Positions 4,103-10,803 of a DNA stretch of 64,000 nucleotides are shown one piece after another. The stretch lies in IMG/VR virus record IMGVR_UViG_2595698952_000001, positions 160,001 to 224,000 of that record; one strand, written 5' to 3'. The DNA is from a virus (Duplodnaviria > Caudoviricetes). Position numbers and translations under genes: made by a program. How positions within the stretch are numbered: position 1 is the first letter of the stretch; each line of letters starts with the position of its first letter. A model generated the notes under the pieces. That model had not been told where the DNA came from and ran no database searches. It saw nothing but the letters and a program-made list of their open reading frames with translations.

Positions 4103-4651
4103 ATGTTCCAATTGTTTAAAGACGTGTTCTCCCTGACCTCGACCCCGCACATCTCCCTGGCAGAGAACTGGCAGGAGGACATCGCCAACCAAATGCGTGA
4201 CCTGGTACGTACTGACCGCATGGAGAATCGTTACGTGGTGTGGTACAAGGACGACAAGCCGTATTTCATCTTTGTGGTCGCGCCTGTCGAGGATCGCCAT
4301 TACCTCTACGTCAAAGAGCACCTCAGTGACGAAATCGTCAACGGGCTACGCGGTACATTAAGCGAAGAGGGGGATGTGAGCAAATACATCCTGTGCAGCG
4401 ATTTAAGGACACCAATCGAATTAGCGGCGGCAACGTTCCAGGGAGTGGCTATCGACATCCCAGGGAGCGTTACAGACGACGTAATCGTGCAATTCATCGG
4501 AAGCGCCGGGGAGGAAGTTGTCCGTCATCGGAAAACGCTGGCCCCTGGTCTGTCACCGGTGTTGTTCCTGTCGGGTAATTTCACTGTCGAGGACATTGCC
4601 GAACTTGAACAAGCGGGTTTCAAGTTGGGTAATCTTCTGTACAAATTTTAA
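4103..4651 (+). CDS. Hypothetical protein
   Basis: AAGGA RBS; followed by a UUCG-loop terminator at 4659-4688. Confidence 0.75.
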   Translation: MFQLFKDVFSLTSTPHISLAENWQEDIANQMRDLVRTDRMENRYVVWYKDDKPYFIFVVAPVEDRHYLYVKEHLSDEIVNGLRGTLSEEGDVSKYILCSDLRTPIELAAATFQGVAIDIPGSVTDDVIVQFIGSAGEEVVRHRKTLAPGLSPVLFLSGNFTVEDIAELEQAGFKLGNLLYKF

Positions 4652-5089
4652 CCAATTTGGGTGCCTTCGGGTGCCCTTTTATTTTTTTGCCCTGCTCACT
4701 TTTTAACCAATGTTTGTACACTTTTTAACCAGCGCCAAAAAGCCCCCTGAAAAGCTCTCTGAGGAGATTTACTCTGACCCGGTACGTTTGGGTGCCTGCC
4801 CCCCTTTCGTCGCTGTGACGTGGCTTACAGGACGCGTGCGCCCCATCCCCGGTTCGCCGAGCCGACCGCCGCGACGATCAAAATATCATGTACGCTTCGC
4901 GTTGGAATGGATTGGGAGACTGGATCGATTTGTAATTCGCATCTCTGCGAATTACCTTCGAGTGCTTTTCCTGGCTTACTGCCTATCCGGCCCTTAAGGC
5001 CGGGATTATTTAAAAATTTCCTTTTTAAATTAGTGACTTACGTCACTCATTGATTTCAGGTTTTGATCTTCGGCGGATCTCTTTCATTA

Positions 5090-5243
5090 TACGCGCGTAC
5101 GCGCACACCCGTATCCTCCAGGATCTTTTAATATATATATATTTATTATTAATATCTTTAGATATTATTAAATATATTAAAATATATTAATATCTTTAGA
5201 TATATTTAAAAGATCTTAAAACGCGTGGGTGCGCGCGTGATCC
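5090..5243. other. AT-rich imperfect palindrome with a 17-bp direct repeat; candidate replication origin
   Basis: ~95-bp almost pure A/T core, TTAATATCTTTAGATAT at 5149 and 5187, inverted GATCTTTTAA/TTAAAAGATC arms, CG-rich flanks. Confidence 0.45.
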
Positions 5244-5307
5244 TTATTACGAGATCGTGATCGGGGGGAGGGGAGGAATTATTTTTTACAAGACTTCCCA
5301 GTAGTGT

Positions 5308-5520
5308 GACAAGTTGACCCCGATGGCATTACGGGAAAGCCACTCTCGACCGAGGATGAGTCTCAGTGTAGCGTGTGTGCGAAATGGGAGTGGCGCTTTT
5401 TCAACGAACGAATCTTACAGGCTGGTAGGATGGAAGGGGAAACCTAGCGACCCTCAGAGTCGCAAACTGCTGTGTGTTGGCTCCGCCCCTGGGGTAAAAC
5501 CTCGGGGCGATTTTTTTTTC
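5308..5520 (+). ncRNA. Putative ~210-nt structured small RNA
   Basis: TTAC-N15-TGTG promoter-like motif at 5286-5308; stems GTTGA/TCAAC, GCCACTCTC/GGGAGTGGC, GCGAC/GTCGC; ends in a strong terminator (5485-5519). Confidence 0.5.
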
Positions 5521-5555
5521 TCCCGAAATCGAATTACGAGTTTGTTTAGTTATAT

Positions 5556-6105
5556 GCGAATAGTTTCCTCGAACGTCACTGCTTGGGGATAGCTGATTTT
5601 CTGCGGATGCAGAGCTCCACCCTGGTCTTCACCAGCCAGGGTGCTTTTTCGAGAATTCCTATCGTGGGAGCCCTCGAAAAAGCAAATCGCTCAGCCTAAC
5701 ACTGTTGGTTTGTTTAGTATGTTCGGCAAAAAGTGTTTCGCGACACTTCGAACGGGTGGTTCCGAGCGGGGAAACTTTGAACCACCCACCCATTCAGGTA
5801 TCGGCTTTTTGCAATCGGCCTTTGGTCGTGATGCATGACGCTTTCACCGTCACACATGTGCCGGTACCGTGGCAGCTCCAGATGCGGGACTTCGAGTATA
5901 CGCCGTTGAACTTACCTCCGGTAGTCCTCGTCGTTCCCGCCCTGGGGTGCGGCCAATCCGAATTCGGCGTTGCGTCGATAGGGGTCTGCGTGTAGAACCG
6001 CAGGCTTGGGGTTACTCCCGAAGGAGAGTGGTCCATATCTTGGCGGCTCGGGAAGACGAGAGGGGTGGATGTCCTCGTTGGGAAACGACGATGTCTGGCT
6101 GAATA
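5556..6105 (+). ncRNA. Putative ~550-nt large structured non-coding RNA
   Basis: TTAC-N15-TATG motif at 5534-5556; dense hairpins and long-range pairings; no credible ORF with an RBS. Confidence 0.55.
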
Positions 6106-6156
6106 AAATTTACAGGTTAGCCGTTGGGTATGTTAAACAACCCACGGAGAACTGCA

Positions 6157-6666
6157 ATGACCACAATCGCTTACGACGGGAAAACCCTCGCGGGTGATTC
6201 CCAAACGACACAAGGCGACATCCGCCTGTCGATGCACGCTGTGAAAATCTTCACCCCCCAACCAGGTGAGTCCTGGGCGGTGAACGGGGAGAAAGCGGTT
6301 TCGTTTGGTGTGGCTGGATGTCTTCAAGGCAACAACGCACTGCGTGAAGCGCTGAACAGTTGCATGAAGGGCTACCAGGGTCTGACCGGAAGCACACGAT
6401 TCCCAAAAGGGATTGTGATTAGTTATCTGGTTGTGACCGAGCATGGTAACGTCTACGCCGGTGGTCAATACGAGAACGACGAGATGCCTTGGCTGACCAA
6501 AGTCGCTGCACCCATTGCGGTGGGTAGCGGGGCAGAGTTCGCCATTGGTGCGATGGCCGCAGGCGCATCCGCTGGTGACGCAGTTAGTATTGCGGCACGG
6601 TTCGATGTAAACACTGGTGGCGAGATTCGGGAGATTAGCCATGAAGCTCTTTCACGTCACGCGTGA
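6157..6666 (+). CDS. HslV/proteasome-type Ntn-hydrolase peptidase
   Basis: N-terminus MTTIAYDGKTLAGDSQTT, later AVGSGAEFAIGAM and DVNTGG motifs; GGAG RBS. Confidence 0.85.
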   Translation: MTTIAYDGKTLAGDSQTTQGDIRLSMHAVKIFTPQPGESWAVNGEKAVSFGVAGCLQGNNALREALNSCMKGYQGLTGSTRFPKGIVISYLVVTEHGNVYAGGQYENDEMPWLTKVAAPIAVGSGAEFAIGAMAAGASAGDAVSIAARFDVNTGGEIREISHEALSRHA

Positions 6667-7018
6667 CTCGTATGTTTTATCTGGCGTGGTGGCAACCGCG
6701 ATTATCTGCGCGGAATCCCACGAAGCAGCAGTCAGACATTGGCCTAAGGTCGACCGTCAGATGCAGCTCGAGGTTGTTGAGTTAGCACCCGCACCAGAAA
6801 ACCAGTTACCGGGTGTCGTGTTGACAACCCAGTTCTGGGGACAGGGTAAACCGGGTTCATTGGCCTCGCGTCATCCGGAAGCAAAGATTTTCATCATCGA
6901 GTTTGAACGTACGGCAACGACCGCGCTTAAAGTCACAGACTGGAAAGACCACAGAGGTCCCCATCCGGATTTTGAGGGTGGCGATATTGACCCGCAAACG
7001 TTAAGCCCGGCGTTTTAG
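6641..7018 (+). CDS. Hypothetical protein
   Basis: GGGAG RBS before ATG 6641, overlapping the peptidase gene. Confidence 0.65.
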   Translation: MKLFHVTRDSYVLSGVVATAIICAESHEAAVRHWPKVDRQMQLEVVELAPAPENQLPGVVLTTQFWGQGKPGSLASRHPEAKIFIIEFERTATTALKVTDWKDHRGPHPDFEGGDIDPQTLSPAF

Positions 7019-7024
7019 TATTCT

Positions 7025-7100
7025 AGGGGCATAGCTCAGCTGGCAGAGCACCGGTCTCCAAAACCGGGTGTCCAAGGTTCGAATCCTTGTGCCCCTGCCA
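7025..7100 (+). tRNA. trnW: tRNA-Trp(CCA)
   Basis: Cloverleaf; anticodon arm CCGGT-CT CCA AA-ACCGG; GTTCGAATC T-loop; encoded CCA. Confidence 0.95.
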
Positions 7101-7174
7101 AATTTAGCCTGCAAGTTCAGTTCTATCCAAAAGCCAATCTGTCCACTACGGACGCTGCTGATTTGGAGAACACC

Positions 7175-7429
7175 ATGAACTTGTATTTGTTAGAAAGACT
7201 AGACCGTGTGGATTACGACGAGTTTGATTCCATAGTCGTGGCTGCCCCTAACCGGGGTGCCGCGCGCGCAACACGTCCCAGATACGGTCATTGGGCTGGC
7301 TCTTGCTATTGTGACGACGATGTACCGTGTACTTGTGGCTGCGATGACGGCGTACGCCTGAGCGTCACTTGTATCGGTCGTACTGACTTACCGGCAGGAG
7401 TTATCCACGAGTCGTTCTGTGCAGGCTGA
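7175..7429 (+). CDS. Small Cys-rich hypothetical protein
   Basis: GGAG RBS; CYC...CTCGC cluster. Confidence 0.7.
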   Translation: MNLYLLERLDRVDYDEFDSIVVAAPNRGAARATRPRYGHWAGSCYCDDDVPCTCGCDDGVRLSVTCIGRTDLPAGVIHESFCAG

Positions 7430-7458
7430 ATACGGTGGGCTTCGGCCCACCACACTTT

Positions 7459-7534
7459 GGGGCGATGGCTCGAGCGGTAAGGCGAGTGATTGCAAATCAC
7501 TTTTAGGCCGGTTCAAATCCGGCTCGTCCCTCCA
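7459..7534 (+). tRNA. trnC: tRNA-Cys(GCA)
   Basis: AGTGA-TT GCA AA-TCACT anticodon arm; T-loop; TCCA end. Confidence 0.93.
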
Positions 7535-7569
7535 ATTTTTTTCTGAATTCCTGTAGGAACTCAAATCGG

Positions 7570-7737
7570 ATGAAAGCCAAACTTCGTAATTTTGCGTTGC
7601 TGGTTTTCCTGGTGTTGGCCGTATTGTTCTACCTGGCTAAGAATTTTGTGATGCTCGCCGTTGACGTCGCAATAATTCTGATGGTCTTGTGGGTGCTACG
7701 GTCACTCGCTAAACGGGCTTTCCGTCGGAAGGCTTAG
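7570..7737 (+). CDS. 55-aa membrane protein (below the ORF-track length cutoff)
   Basis: MKAKLRNFALLVFLVLAVLFYLAKNFVMLAVDVAIILMVLWVLRSLAKRAFRRKA: two hydrophobic helices with basic ends; AGGA RBS. Confidence 0.7.
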   Translation: MKAKLRNFALLVFLVLAVLFYLAKNFVMLAVDVAIILMVLWVLRSLAKRAFRRKA

Positions 7738-7800
7738 CGAACAGCGGAAACTCCGCTCTGTTGTATCAAACCCTGATATTCACCAGTAGGATAATAAAAC

Positions 7801-8631
7801 ATGAAAAAGCTTTTGGTAGGTTTGTTGGCAATCCTGGCGTTCTCCGCTCACGCTACTGATGTTACCATTACGACGGGCCAGCAAGGTCTGACGTACAACG
7901 CCACGTACGGCGTGAATCTTGCCAGTGCTCTGAATGAGTTCGGCAACAAGTCCACTGTGGTACCGTCGAAAGGTTCCCTGGACAACCTGGACAAAGTTGC
8001 TGCCGGTTCTGCGCAGATTGGTTTTACCCAGGCAGACGCTTTCCAGTTCTGGCGCTCACAGCATCCGAACGAAGCACAGAACGTAGACATCGTTGGCCAG
8101 CTGGGTGACGAGTGTGTCTTCGTGGCTGTCAAGAAAGAAGGTAAGGTTGGCGGTGAAGCCGATCTGAAAGAAGGCATTAAGATTGCGGTCGGTGAACCCG
8201 ACTCTGGTTCTTACGCCAGTTGGCAATACCTGCAAGGTTTGGTGAAGCAATACGCAAAAGCTGAAACCTACGCGAAAGGCGGTATCCGTTCTCTGTCCAA
8301 AGTGGCCACGGGTGAATACGACGCGTTCATGTGGGTAAGCGCACCGGGCAAGAATAACAAATTCCTCGAAGCAGTTAACCAGGATAGCTCTGGTCTGAAA
8401 CTCATCGACATGAACAACTGGAACGTCAACGATAAACTGCCTAACGGGCAAGCAGTCTACGAGAAGAAGTCTGCTAAAGTTGATAACTCTGCGTGGTTCG
8501 GTGGTGATGTGAAAGTGCCGTGCACCAAAACGTTGGTGGTTGCTAATACCGACGCCGGTGACGAACTGCTGGAAGCCGTTTCTACTATCCTCCTCAAGAA
8601 TGCTCCACGCATCATGGGGACGGGTAAGTAA
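7801..8631 (+). CDS. TAXI-family (TRAP) periplasmic solute-binding protein
   Basis: Signal peptide MKKLLVGLLAILAFSAHA; motifs ITTG..GLTY, SKGSLDNL, IGFTQAD, IAVGEPDSGS. Confidence 0.8.
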   Translation: MKKLLVGLLAILAFSAHATDVTITTGQQGLTYNATYGVNLASALNEFGNKSTVVPSKGSLDNLDKVAAGSAQIGFTQADAFQFWRSQHPNEAQNVDIVGQLGDECVFVAVKKEGKVGGEADLKEGIKIAVGEPDSGSYASWQYLQGLVKQYAKAETYAKGGIRSLSKVATGEYDAFMWVSAPGKNNKFLEAVNQDSSGLKLIDMNNWNVNDKLPNGQAVYEKKSAKVDNSAWFGGDVKVPCTKTLVVANTDAGDELLEAVSTILLKNAPRIMGTGK

Positions 8632-9216
8632 GTGCTGACGTGTAAAGGGCACTGGCTGGGCTGATAACCCCGCCGGGACGGTTTCATCTGAGGGGTTGGG
8701 TGAAGTGAAGAAACGTGGCACACCAATAAGTCCACGTTAACCGGATTGCATAAAGCACTACCTGCGGGTAGGCAATCCTGCCGTCTAACATTATTCGGTG
8801 ATTAAACATGGAAGAGTTGTTCAGAGCGTTTCTGTACCGAATGGGTACCTGGTTGAAAGACCTCAAGCTCTGGAAGCTCGATTGCTATTGGTTATCAGGA
8901 TGTGGGACTGAACGCCATAAACCTGTTTTAGGACGAGAGTCCTCAACCCAGGCGAAGTCCGTTACGGACGAAGGTCAAGCACCGGCCCATTAAGCCGACT
9001 CGCTGACATAGGCAACCTTCACCCCACAATCTGAATGTAACTGATGGGATTGAGTTCCCAGTGTGAAAGAGTAGCAGTGTGCTACTGAGTTCCTCCCTGG
9101 GACTGCTGAGCAGCGAGGGAATAGGGCCAAGAAGAAAGTAAGTAGGGTTGGTGCTTGGAGGCGCTAAGACCGGGGGATACCCTGGCTCAGAAGAAGAAGT
9201 CCATCAACCTCACTTA
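8632..9216 (+). ncRNA. ~585-nt large ornate ncRNA, ROOL-like candidate
   Basis: Long-range helix GGGTGAAG(8698)/CTTCACCC(9017); two adjacent pseudoknot pairings; many hairpins; abuts a tRNA. Confidence 0.6.
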
Positions 9217-9218
9217 AT

Positions 9219-9294
9219 GCGAGTATAGCTCAGCTGGTAGAGCTTCTGGTTCCCAACCAGACGGTCGTGAGTTCGAATCTCATTGCTCGCTCCA
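9219..9294 (+). tRNA. trnG: tRNA-Gly(CCC)
   Basis: TCTGG-TT CCC AA-CCAGA; acceptor GCGAGTA/TGCTCGC; TCCA end. Confidence 0.92.
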
Positions 9295-9403
9295 ACAAAA
9301 TCAATGACTTATAGCGATTTCCCCATTTCGCTACAAGACAACCTAAGTATATGTAAAACAACCAAGACGTGTGCGAATTCGAAGTTGAGTTCTCAGACGT
9401 ATT

Positions 9404-9489
9404 GGCGCGGTACTCAAGTGGTCAACGAGAGCAGACTGTAAATCTGTTGCCTTCGGGCTTCGTAGGTTCAAATCCTTCCCTCGCCACCA
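9404..9489 (+). tRNA. trnY: tRNA-Tyr(GTA)
   Basis: GCAGA-CT GTA AA-TCTGT, long variable arm, ACCA end; one acceptor mismatch. Confidence 0.92.
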
Positions 9490-9495
9490 ATATTT

Positions 9496-9570
9496 GTTCC
9501 TGTCGTCTAGTGGTAAGGACACCTGGTTTTCAACCAGGCAACCGGAGTTCAATTCTCCGCAGGAACGCCA
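9496..9570 (+). tRNA. trnE: tRNA-Glu(TTC)
   Basis: CCTGG-TT TTC AA-CCAGG; GCCA end. Confidence 0.94.
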
Positions 9571-9575
9571 AACAA

Positions 9576-9722
9576 TGACACTGACCCTCGCCGCCATTGA
9601 GCAGCTTAGAGGTCTGGCAGCCAATAAAGGCATCCGTAAGTAACCGTAGCCTTCGGGCGTAGATGGTGAAAGCCGCCAAGTGCAGCCTTAGAACTCCGTG
9701 GGATTCGGAGGAGTGTCACCCA
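9576..9722 (+). ncRNA. 147-nt tRNA-like RNA with acceptor stem and CCA but no anticodon arm
   Basis: TGACACT/AGTGTCA + C + CCA; T-arm-like CTCCG-TGGGATT-CGGAG; internal UUCG and GAAA tetraloop hairpins. Confidence 0.55.
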
Positions 9723-9726
9723 TTTT

Positions 9727-9804
9727 AGGATTGTAGCTCAGTTGGTCTAGAGTGCCGCCCTGTCACGGCGGAGGTCGCGGGTTCGAGCCCCGTCAGTCCT
9801 GCCA
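9727..9804 (+). tRNA. trnD: tRNA-Asp(GTC)
   Basis: CCGCC-CT GTC AC-GGCGG; GCCA end. Confidence 0.95.
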
Positions 9805-9813
9805 TTTTTAAAT

Positions 9814-9889
9814 TGCGTCTTAGCTCAGTTGGTAGAGCGCACCCCTGATAAGGGTGAGGTCACTGGTTCAAGTCCAGTAGATGCAACCA
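9814..9889 (+). tRNA. trnI: tRNA-Ile(GAT)
   Basis: CACCC-CT GAT AA-GGGTG; ACCA end. Confidence 0.95.
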
Positions 9890-9895
9890 GTATTC

Positions 9896-9971
9896 GGTTC
9901 TGTAGCTTAGCTGGTAGAGCACGCCACTCATAATGGCGCGGTCGTTGGTTCGAATCCAGCCAGAACCACCA
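9896..9971 (+). tRNA. tRNA with CAT anticodon (elongator Met more likely than Ile2)
   Basis: CGCCA-CT CAT AA-TGGCG; ACCA end; lacks the initiator GGG/CCC anticodon stem. Confidence 0.88.
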
Positions 9972-9978
9972 TTTCAAC

Positions 9979-10056
9979 GGTGTATGTAGTTCAGCTGGTT
10001 AGAATACTGGCTTGTGACGTCAGTGGTCGAGAGTTCGAGTCTCTCCATACACCCCA
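9979..10056 (+). tRNA. trnH: tRNA-His(GTG)
   Basis: CTGGC-TT GTG AC-GTCAG; G-1:C73 pair; CCA end. Confidence 0.94.
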
Positions 10057-10061
10057 ATTCT

Positions 10062-10151
10062 GGAGAATTGTCCGAGAGGCTTAAAGAGCTCCCCTGCTAA
10101 GGGAGTGGTGGCGAAAGCTGCCCGTGTGTTCGAATCACACATTCTCCGCCA
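10062..10151 (+). tRNA. trnS: tRNA-Ser(GCT)
   Basis: CTCCC-CT GCT AA-GGGAG, long variable arm, GCCA end. Confidence 0.95.
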
Positions 10152-10157
10152 AACAAT

Positions 10158-10277
10158 AGTCGCCTAGCTCAAGATTAGAGCACACCTTACGACCAATACT
10201 GACCAACACGCACCGCGGTGCAATAATGGCGGTGGCGTGATGTGCGGTTACCGGTTCAAGTCCGGTGGTGACTTCCC
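10158..10277 (+). ncRNA. tRNA-like RNA with a ~45-nt insertion extending the anticodon arm
   Basis: Acceptor AGTCGCC/GGTGACT, D arm GCTC/GAGC, T arm ACCGG-TTCAAGT-CCGGT; the anticodon arm is a long interrupted hairpin. Confidence 0.7.
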
Positions 10278-10284
10278 TATAATG

Positions 10285-10347
10285 GCTACTCCCGGTCGGT
10301 CTGGGGTCGTCTGTAAAGACGAGGATGGTTCAAATCCGTCAGTGGCA
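10285..10347 (+). ncRNA. Shrunken (~63 nt) Tyr-like tRNA mimic or pseudo-tRNA
   Basis: GCTACT/AGTGGC acceptor, TCGTC-TGTAAA-GACGA arm (6-nt loop), T arm GATGG-TTCAAAT-CCGTC; no CCA. Confidence 0.55.
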
Positions 10348-10348
10348 A

Positions 10349-10425
10349 GAGCGATGCTGTTAAGATGGTTAACACCCGACTCATAATCGGATATTCGCAG
10401 GTTCGATTCCTGTCATCGTTCGCCC
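10349..10425 (+). tRNA. Divergent CAT-anticodon tRNA (Ile2-like)
   Basis: CCGA-CT CAT AA-TCGG, T arm GCAGG-TTCGATT-CCTGT; C instead of U8, possible 8-bp acceptor, ends GCCC. Confidence 0.65.
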
Positions 10426-10431
10426 TATTTT

Positions 10432-10508
10432 GGTTCCATAGCTCAGTTGGTTAGAGCGGCTGCCTGTTAAGCAGTAGGTCCCTGGTTCGAGTCCAGGTGG
10501 TACCGCCA
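10432..10508 (+). tRNA. trnN: tRNA-Asn(GTT)
   Basis: GCTGC-CT GTT AA-GCAGT; GCCA end. Confidence 0.94.
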
Positions 10509-10803
10509 CATTTGTGTTGCCCTAGTCCCGAAGACGTTCCGGAAAAACCTATTCATGGTCGGGGGTAACACGAACACATTCGCTGTCTTGCATCCTTTAC
10601 GTTAGTCTCCAGACGCGTTTCGGGGCGCGGGACGGTGAACCCCTTTCTGGTTGCATTTCCATTTTCATGAACCCTGCCTGGTGTGTTGGTGTTTATGTAA
10701 CCAGAATCAATTAGCCCATGCCGATGTGCTATTGTCTTCCGAACGCGACCCGCGTTCTGCCCAGGAAGACGCCTGCTGTAGTTTCAATGCCAGTACCAGG
10801 GAA

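Follow-up and report, generated by a model that had tools for sequence, protein, structure and literature searches.

A conserved, folded non-coding RNA ahead of the tRNA genes of SPN3US-like jumbo phages

The RNA locus and its conserved fold

The DNA considered here is a stretch of 64,000 nucleotides (nt; hereafter the window), bases 160001-224000 of a 243,050-bp virus record (IMGVR_UViG_2595698952_000001) from an SPN3US/Asesino-like jumbo phage. It contains a gap of ~1.5 kb (4652-6156) that holds only short open reading frames (ORFs) and is bordered by a gene for a 182-amino acid (aa) protein on the left and by an HslV-like peptidase gene (6157-6666), followed by tRNA genes, on the right. Inside this gap, at positions 5558-6104 of the + strand, is a conserved, folded, sense-strand non-coding RNA with a predicted length of ~547 nt, based on alignment, covariation and strand tests, and on the absence of a conserved ORF. 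About ten of its helices are kept by compensatory changes. The tRNA genes, 12 of which were identified by ARAGORN (search of 4500-10700) at 7025-10508, lie downstream of the RNA on the same strand, and 11 tRNA matches were the sole output of cmscan for the whole window at gathering scores. By blastn the DNA round the locus has 87-90% identity to Erwinia phage Asesino, while Salmonella phage SPN3US and many Erwinia jumbo phages are more distant relatives. The window also encodes the split multisubunit RNA polymerase genes typical of the SPN3US-like group.

Folding of the 550-nt stretch gave an energy of -221 kcal/mol, compared to -196.3 +/- 7.3 kcal/mol for 100 dinucleotide shuffles (z -3.38), none of which folded as well. 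The reverse strand also folded better than its shuffles (z -3.08, 1/100), and the folding energy thus shows that the stretch has many hairpins and picks no strand. The strand was indicated instead by the alignment of homologues, whose consensus pairs include 159 G-U cells and 19 A-C cells, a count biased by the fact that the structure was predicted on the + strand. For this reason the fairer strand test is the RNAalifold energy of the alignment, which was -154.5 for the + strand and -118.8 for the reverse complement. Both the excess of G-U pairs and the energy gap point to a single-stranded + sense RNA.

The homologue set used for these analyses comprised 26 distinct sequences of 407-527 nt from about seven clades, after removal of duplicates and of two variants (SNUABM_6 and the Kwan type). 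RNAalifold predicted 60 pairs for the 26 sequences, 29 of which were changed on both sides in at least one sequence. In this structure 96.9% of cells were paired, compared to 85.3 +/- 0.5% in shuffles, and none of 500 shuffles reached the observed value. There were 198 double-change cells, compared to 66.8 +/- 7.6 in shuffles (0/500 as high), a count in which inherited changes appear repeatedly and for which the number of independent events is nearer that of the clades (~seven). When the 3' partners were slid by 1-3 columns as a control, only 35-43% of cells were paired and 12-34 double-change cells were left. Addition of hairpin H5 (see below) brought the structure to 67 pairs, 34 of them changed on both sides, with 227 double-change cells and 95.6% of cells paired (83.6% in shuffles). 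A model-fitted alignment of the 3' 150 nt was 91.3% paired, with two-sided changes in 16 of its 35 pairs.

No reading frame is conserved across the RNA. None is open in all 26 sequences, stops occur in every + strand frame near the most conserved stretch (the core, 6037-6065) in 24-26 of the 26, and the longest open frame switches both frame and strand between relatives. The window does contain ORFs of 77 and 96 aa, the former matching phrog_27350 (E 2.6e-5), and proteins have been annotated over the RNA in relatives (L001:2474-2917, L005:954-1367 and L011:876-1271; Asesino gp288 and gp289, Huxley gp278 and Parshik gp279). These GenBank hypothetical proteins are probably miscalled ORFs, which makes them a practical point at which annotation could be corrected, and phrog_27350 appears to have been built from such miscalls. 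A small ORF that runs from an invariant UUG (6040) to UGA (6100), behind a GGAG block, was considered and rejected: a 1-nt insertion disrupts its frame in the SPN3US group, three clades have an earlier stop, and its C-terminal half is unconserved.

The RNA was not matched by any known family. The cmscan search of the whole window against Rfam 15 at gathering scores had no match for it, and at E <= 10 the segment 4500-6300 had 12 weak matches, none of them to GOLLD, ROOL, OLE, raiA or HEARO. In six homologous loci searched at E <= 1, the matches were confined to a tRNA and a sub-threshold int-alpA. The original prediction, which was made from the letters of the window, had recognized no RNase P, tmRNA or intron signature, and this agrees with the Rfam searches, which gave no such match, and with ARAGORN, which found tRNAs only in 4500-10700. 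Literature on SPN3US non-coding RNA, jumbo-phage structured RNA and GOLLD/ROOL, searched exclusive of supplements, held no description of the RNA. The novelty of the class holds against Rfam 15 and this literature only. Within that scope we consider it highly probable that the locus encodes a structured sense-strand RNA of an undescribed family. The same prediction had proposed a new large phage RNA class; the RNA is indeed large, conserved, covarying and unmatched in Rfam, whereas a pseudoknot and a long-range closure that were part of the proposal did not hold, as described below. The prediction also suggested that the RNA may have a structural part in the phage nucleus, a role that is speculative.

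Helices and conserved elements

We infer that the RNA has a pair of hairpins on its 5' side, continues with an optional insert and finishes in a closed 3' domain (5792-6104). Its ends are placed by a TATG motif on the 5' side and by the closing helix on the 3' side. The first hairpin, Hp1 (5618-5643), is G+C-rich, with a stem CACCCTGG/CCAGGGTG at 5618/5636, and is followed by an invariant U run (CUUUUUCGAG), which gives it a terminator-like shape. Hp1 aligns poorly and folds alone; a hairpin of at least 5 bp is found here in all 26 homologues, with at least seven different stem sequences. The U run is paired with a downstream A run in the long hairpin Hp2 (5643-5683; stem GCTTTTTCGAG/CTCGAAAAAGC at 5643/5673), which has two-sided changes in 8 of 15 pairs and 92.3% of cells paired. 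After Hp2 comes a single-stranded block, GCCUAACAC (5694-5702), that is conserved in the 26-sequence alignment, and then a variable insert (5705-5790) with two hairpins, including GGGTGGTTC/GAACCACCC at 5754/5779. The single-stranded block is no recurring motif of the window, where it had nine matches at one mismatch, compared to 12.4 expected. The insert contains the motif TTTGTTTAGTATG (5709-5721), is gapped in 11 of the 26 rows and is missing from Huxley-type and Wellington-type relatives. Since it is found in only part of the family, GGGTGGTTC/GAACCACCC stands outside the covariation count.

The 3' domain is closed by helix H0, in which (A)UUCAG (5792-5797) is partnered by CUGAA(U) (6099-6104), the latter marking the likely 3' edge of the folded domain. 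The pairs predicted by RNAalifold are those of UCA (5793-5795) with UGA (6100-6102), which hold in 24, 26 and 26 of the 26 sequences, and an adjoining G-C pair (alignment columns 215/651) holds in all 26. The letters of H0 are invariant, which puts this helix beyond the reach of covariation. Helix H1 (5797-5868) pairs GGUAUCGGC (5797-5805) with GCCGGUACC (5860-5868) and encloses variable hairpins; 4 of its 8 pairs (4 of 5 in its variable part) are changed on both sides and 96-100% of cells are paired. It corresponds to the near-perfect stem GGTATCGGC/GCCGGTACC (5797/5860, with one G-U) that had been read from the sequence. Helices H2 (UGGC 5870/GCCA 5952) and H3 (GCUCCA 5875/UGGGGU 5943) close a branched insert (5870-5955), are 99-100% paired and together have 7 of 10 pairs changed on both sides (5 of 6 for H3 alone). 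Hairpin H5 (5902-5922) has a conserved 7-nt loop, AACUUAC (5909-5915), and covaries as well, with two-sided changes in 5 of 7 pairs and 83.3% of cells paired; the window copy has two mismatched pairs. A further stem, GCGGGA/TCCCGC at 5884/5935, falls in a poorly alignable part, where 91 of 156 cells are paired.

Three hairpins lie between this branched insert and the core. H6 (5963-5978; UUCGGCG/CGUCGA) is 100% paired, with one pair changed on both sides and two on one side. H7 (5984-6005; GUCUGCG/CGCAGGC) is present as a hairpin of at least 5 bp in 21 of the 26 homologues, with four different stem sequences, and in the model-fitted alignment 4 of its 7 pairs have changed on both sides, with 69% of cells paired owing to a one-column register shift. 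H8 (CUCC/GGAG), with two-sided changes in 2 of 4 pairs, and the UGGUCC block that follows it occupy 6015-6034 and form a GGAGG-UGAUCC-like stretch. The block in the window is GGAG(A)G-UGGUCC (6023-6034), the family consensus is GGAGG-UGAUCC, and its GGAG is paired with the upstream CUCC. Its sequence is complementary to the 3' tail of 16S rRNA. Most clades have this block, but it is missing from an uncultured clade (the L033 clade, described below), which lacks the H8 part.

The most conserved part of the RNA is the core, AUCUUGGCGGCUCGGGAAGACGAGAGGGG (6037-6065), which includes hairpin H9 (CUCG 6047/CGAG 6057). Twenty-three of its 29 positions are identical in all 26 aligned sequences and also in all 25 sequences of another alignment (A3), and five core pairs are invariant across the alignment. 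The identical positions include third-codon positions, and the SPN3US group has a 1-nt insertion here. Beside the core is the terminal hairpin (6066-6098), capped by a GNRA-type loop, GGGA (6080-6083; GNGA family-wide), in which 9 of 13 pairs are changed on both sides and 97.3% of cells are paired. Its sequence changes almost wholly beside the invariant core and yet it stays paired. The last 150 nt of the 3' domain thus combine a near-invariant 29-nt core with a GNRA-capped hairpin.

All seven stem pairs named in the original prediction are present at or beside the positions given for them, and its expectations on folding energy, covariation and the lack of an Rfam match agree with the results above. 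Two long-range pairings that it proposed did no better than shuffles. The pseudoknot ACGCCG/CGGCGT (5900/5965) and the ~400-nt closure TCAGCC/GGCTGA (5691/6097) were jointly paired in 76.4% of cells, compared to 77.5% in shuffles, 477 of 500 of which were as good. The strands of the pseudoknot are used by H5 and H6, which covary, and the UCAG/CUGA closure (5793/6099) fits better than the longer one.

Distribution and natural variants

By blastn the region was detected in 60 phage records, with 5866-6151 being its best-kept part and 5940-6119 its most widely kept, and 17 GenBank loci were fetched for comparison. A further 11 IMG/VR loci came from a scan with the exact pattern of the most conserved motif. 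Relaxing the motif yielded 19 metagenome loci, of which 12 were true relatives and seven were chance G+C-rich matches, and three loci in genome contigs, one of them true. These searches revealed a further clade (L033, L037, L039, L040 and L051) made up of four metagenome contigs and a genome contig, with contigs of up to 222-229 kb. The last member, L051, is a 13.7-kb contig in a bin labelled Bacillota that has the same RNA as the rest of the clade and is probably a phage contig binned by mistake. The range of the family is Seoulvirus, Erskinevirus, Machinavirus, Wellingtonvirus and one uncultured clade, that is, SPN3US-like nucleus-forming jumbo phages. Its members are defined by the core CUUGNCGGCUCG-N4-5-GACGAGAGGGG, a covarying GNRA-capped hairpin, and GCUG, all of which the window has. 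Supporting this definition are the scores with a model (R2), which were 149.3 bits for the window and 78.7-156.2 bits for 28 true loci, and at most 18.7 bits for chance pattern matches.

Two natural variants indicate which part of the RNA matters most. In pEa_SNUABM_6 (L013 1015-1282) a deletion of ~140 nt between two TAGCCCC repeats has removed H3 to H7; the 5' hairpins, H1 and the 3' core are kept, and the core scores 117.1 bits with R2. In Kwan-type phages the RNA gene is interrupted, 15-20 nt before the core, by a putative gene for an HNH endonuclease that has a terminator-like hairpin of its own. In Kwan the 3' core is intact (90.6 bits with R2) despite being split from the rest of the RNA by the HNH gene. 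As judged from these two variants, it is the 3' core that matters most. The insertion is located at 560-1200 of L009 (Kwan) and also occurs in L021, L028 and L034, and a partial duplicate of the UGAUCC..AAAGACG block is present on the left side of the HNH gene. No match to the group I intron model (Intron_gpI) was found round the HNH ORF in a cmscan of L009 at E <= 1, the sole output being a sub-threshold int-alpA (31 bits, compared to the gathering score of 35.8). The HNH gene looks like a free-standing homing endonuclease aimed at the conserved core.

Outside this range the RNA was not detected. In Phobos, Derbicus, PhiPA3, BUCT660 and Deimos-Minion no match to a model of the core (R1) was better than E 0.21 (13.3 bits). 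Phobos and Derbicus, which represent the nearest outgroup genus (57-58% RNA polymerase identity), had no core match better than E 0.4 and no related sequence at their record ends. They also have no tRNA genes, of which Huxley has 10 and Kwan 8, and lack a match to the conserved flank of an A+T-rich palindrome of 150 bp (5092-5241) that is flanked by GATC clusters upstream of the RNA. There is thus a hint, from two related genomes on each side, that the RNA, the palindrome and the tRNA island behave as one module.

Expression, function and comparison with known systems

Promoter-like motifs of the form TTAC(R)(R)G-N12-16-T(A/G)TG are situated at 5285, 5534 and 6109, and two of these flank the RNA, as had been noted originally. 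The upstream one (5534-5558; TTACGAG-N12-TATATG) ends in a TATG at 5555-5558 and is predicted to act as the promoter of the RNA. Its region (5533-5563) is 88% conserved in the SPN3US group, and a motif of this kind immediately precedes the RNA in Huxley-type phages. According to an excerpt of PMC7598289, the ϕKZ late promoter is T(-3)ATG(+1), with G as +1. By that rule transcription would start at G5558, two bases from the start first proposed. The second motif (6109-6132; TTTACAGG-N12-TATG, ..GGGTATG) is located ahead of the HslV-like gene, and its form has two matches in the window, compared to 0.25 expected. In 19 of the 26 distinct homologues there is a TTTAC motif behind the RNA. Genome-wide, the strict form has two sites, both at the RNA locus, compared to 1.25 in shuffles. 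Two other sequences were tried as recurring elements and rejected: GCCTAACAC, as a promoter element, had nine matches (12.4 expected), and GTTTGTTTAGT had 14 matches (17.6 expected).

Two side observations concern the DNA to the left of the RNA. The motif at 5285-5308 is followed by ~200 nt of hairpins and a strong terminator (5487-5517), and 5285-5517 looks like a short terminated RNA, which among the fetched relatives has a blastn match in Asesino only. Farther left, the ORF-poor stretch 4652-5090 beside the palindrome has three + strand terminator-like hairpins (4659, 4986 and 5032) and may be what had been taken for a first large RNA, this one being counted as the second.

On the + strand no terminator-like site was found between 5643 and 6400. 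In 7 of the 26 homologues an ORF with a ribosome-binding site is located 24-28 nt past the RNA, with no promoter-like TTTAC motif between. Based on the lack of a terminator and on these close downstream ORFs, transcription very probably continues past the RNA, and processing would be required to yield a free RNA. Hp1 with its U run (5618-5650) has the shape of a terminator in all 26 homologues. The bases on either side of the U run covary with the downstream strand, those just before it with the strand 40 nt further on (columns 39/88: CG 12, GC 6, UA 6), which indicates that at least some transcripts read through Hp1.

The explanation that we consider best, and reasonably probable, is that the locus is the gene of a structured RNA of ~0.55 kb from an uncatalogued family that is read through and acts in trans as a stable RNA. 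Transcription would start at the TATG-type phage promoter (5555-5558) and, for want of a terminator, continue past the RNA through the HslV-like gene as far as the tRNA cluster. The compactly folded RNA would then be cut out of the transcript, or persist, as a stable trans-acting RNA, and its invariant 3' core would be the binding site for a partner (a protein, an RNA or its own copies), like GOLLD/ROOL. That the RNA is stable and works in trans, and not in cis, is the more tentative part of this explanation, and taken by itself it is somewhat doubtful. An antisense role of five conserved single-stranded blocks was also considered, and their targets on the + strand of the phage genome showed no enrichment (17, 0, 0, 5 and 18 sites, compared to naive expectations of 14.8, 3.7, 3.7, 3.7 and 59.3).

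Several observations weigh against a free, trans-acting RNA. The promoter-like motif is unenriched genome-wide (8 sites of the relaxed form, compared to 6.8 in shuffles), so the promoter call rests on position and conservation only. No 3'-end signal for the RNA was found, and both of its ends are inferred. A leader and a free RNA are equally compatible with the promoter-like motif that comes directly behind the RNA in 19 of 26 homologues and with read-through in the remainder. A search of sequencing runs found none on record as RNA that contained the sequence, and no run had more than 0.12 of the sampled words; the four runs examined yielded only contigs of relatives, including short ones from a wastewater 'RNA-Seq' run flagged as probably DNA, an outcome that speaks neither for nor against expression. 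As the deletion and HNH variants illustrate, phages stay viable when much of the RNA is missing or interrupted, and a single loss of the entire locus would account for the co-occurrence of the RNA with tRNA genes. To these are added the good fold of the reverse strand and the small number of independent changes behind the double-change cells.

The rival that survives best, possible if unlikely, is that the RNA is a cis-acting 5' leader of the HslV-like gene and tRNA operon, involved in antitermination or anti-pausing of the phage RNA polymerase along the highly structured tRNA genes, in processing, or in translation control. An analogue for such a leader is the put RNA of HK022, which makes RNA polymerase resistant to pausing and termination. 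The position of the RNA directly upstream of 12 tRNA genes on the same strand, the lack of a terminator behind it and the ribosome-binding sites that follow it so closely in 7 homologues are all consistent with a leader, but in the other 19 homologues the TTTAC motif separates the RNA from the next gene. Similarly, a related small-protein gene is directly 3' of the RNA in three clades, yet the next gene varies by clade (HslV-like, a 191-aa protein, or a family of 104-245 aa), and the GGAG block that is paired with CUCC just ahead of the core is missing in the L033 clade. To our knowledge, ~500 nt with ten helices far exceeds the need of known cis antitermination RNAs. Members of the small-protein family (104-245 aa) are encoded by the gene next to the RNA on its 3' side in Machinavirus, Wellingtonvirus, SPAsTU and pEa_SNUABM_29 (L005:1394-1774, L003:2000-2389, L004:1716-2030, L008:1388-1765, L009:1318-2055, L010:1316-1696 and L012:1319-2026), and tblastn at E <= 1e-3 found no homologue of it in the window's own genome.

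A second rival, which we consider improbable, is that the RNA serves at a replication origin, as a folded transcript that primes or activates DNA synthesis beside the A+T-rich palindrome, as ColE1 RNA II and T4 origin transcripts do. The palindrome is the A+T-richest 150-bp segment of the 243-kb genome (at 5112, ~450 nt upstream of the RNA), and its right flank (5232-5266) is conserved across the family; the RNA, however, is read in the direction that leads away from it, the 3' end of the RNA is not followed by a long A+T-rich stretch suited to unwinding, and the cumulative GC skew has no turning point at the locus. The size of the RNA (~550 nt) and its G-rich invariant 3' part are in keeping with such a role, as is the joint absence of the palindrome flank, the RNA and the tRNAs from Phobos and Derbicus. 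Its compact closed helices and GNRA loop would suit a folded functional RNA over a primer that forms a hybrid. The palindrome itself is a possible origin or other DNA-level site, and several GenBank records of relatives begin inside it.

Very unlikely is the third rival, in which conservation is at the DNA level (a protein-binding or packaging site, or a homing-endonuclease target) and the hairpins are incidental. An almost invariant 29-nt stretch with an HNH gene inserted 15-20 nt from it in Kwan-type phages is what a DNA target might look like, many GenBank records of relatives start or stop near the locus, and both strands fold better than shuffles. A DNA-binding site would have no need for 34 of 67 pairs to keep pairing through two-sided changes, nor does this rival accord with the G-U over A-C excess (159 to 19) or with the + strand alignment folding better by 36 kcal/mol. 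Finally, that the locus encodes small proteins, as annotated in Asesino, Huxley and Parshik, is hardly credible despite the 77- and 96-aa ORFs, the phrog_27350 match and those annotations, given that no frame is open throughout, every + frame is interrupted by stops in 24-26 of 26 sequences, the longest open frame moves between frames and strands, the most conserved block has 1-nt indels, and its near-invariant run has no third-position variation while the flanking hairpin changes completely.

The closest analogues of the RNA are GOLLD and ROOL, to neither of which it belongs, based on the fact that it did not match the Rfam model of either. As described in an excerpt of bioRxiv 10.1101/2024.12.08.627333, GOLLD is a large ornate RNA of phages and prophages, often >800 nt and often near tRNA islands, with no known function and with a 3' region that is conserved throughout and a 5' region that is less so, which forms a 14-mer cage as seen by cryo-EM. 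The same excerpt describes ROOL as a highly structured RNA, ~600 nt long, that phages and prophages carry close to tRNA islands, with no known protein partner and non-essential where tested. On that description, the window RNA resembles GOLLD (RF01998) in combining a variable 5' part with a conserved 3' part and in its position ahead of 12 tRNA genes, and differs from it in having no model match even at E <= 10, in being smaller, and in its hosts; the GOLLD cage was observed directly, whereas the window RNA is known from sequence alone. It resembles ROOL (RF03087) in size, being a jumbo-phage RNA with natural deletion and insertion variants, and differs in that it has no Rfam model match and its sequence and helices are unrelated. 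It shares with both the trait of being phage-borne and beside a tRNA island.

Among smaller RNAs, the stable RNAs of the T4 tRNA cluster, species 1 and 2, are ~120-140 nt in size, of unknown function, and cut from a tRNA co-transcript. They are phage-encoded stable RNAs tied to tRNA genes, as is proposed for the window RNA, but are located inside the tRNA cluster, whereas the window RNA is four times larger and ahead of the cluster. ColE1 RNA II is also a folded transcript of ~550 nt by a replication element, the counterpart here being the palindrome ~450 nt upstream, from which, in contrast, the window RNA is transcribed away.

Only a handful of large, intricately folded RNAs of bacteria and phages are known, and by the account excerpted above the function of GOLLD and ROOL is still open. 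This RNA would add an unrelated example from jumbo phages that grow on laboratory strains of Escherichia coli and Salmonella. Relatives of the window phage form a phage nucleus and can be studied genetically, according to an excerpt of PMC11724907, and the RNA would make testable both the role of such RNAs and whether RNA takes part in the nucleus-based life cycle. A bolder reading, and a rather unlikely one, is that it represents a third independent class of large self-organizing phage RNA beside GOLLD and ROOL, specific to nucleus-forming enterobacterial jumbo phages, which builds a multimer or ribonucleoprotein for phage tRNAs or host translation. The core and GNRA loop would then build the assembly, for example to escort or store tRNA precursors made inside the phage nucleus, and the RNA and tRNAs would be gained and lost as a unit.

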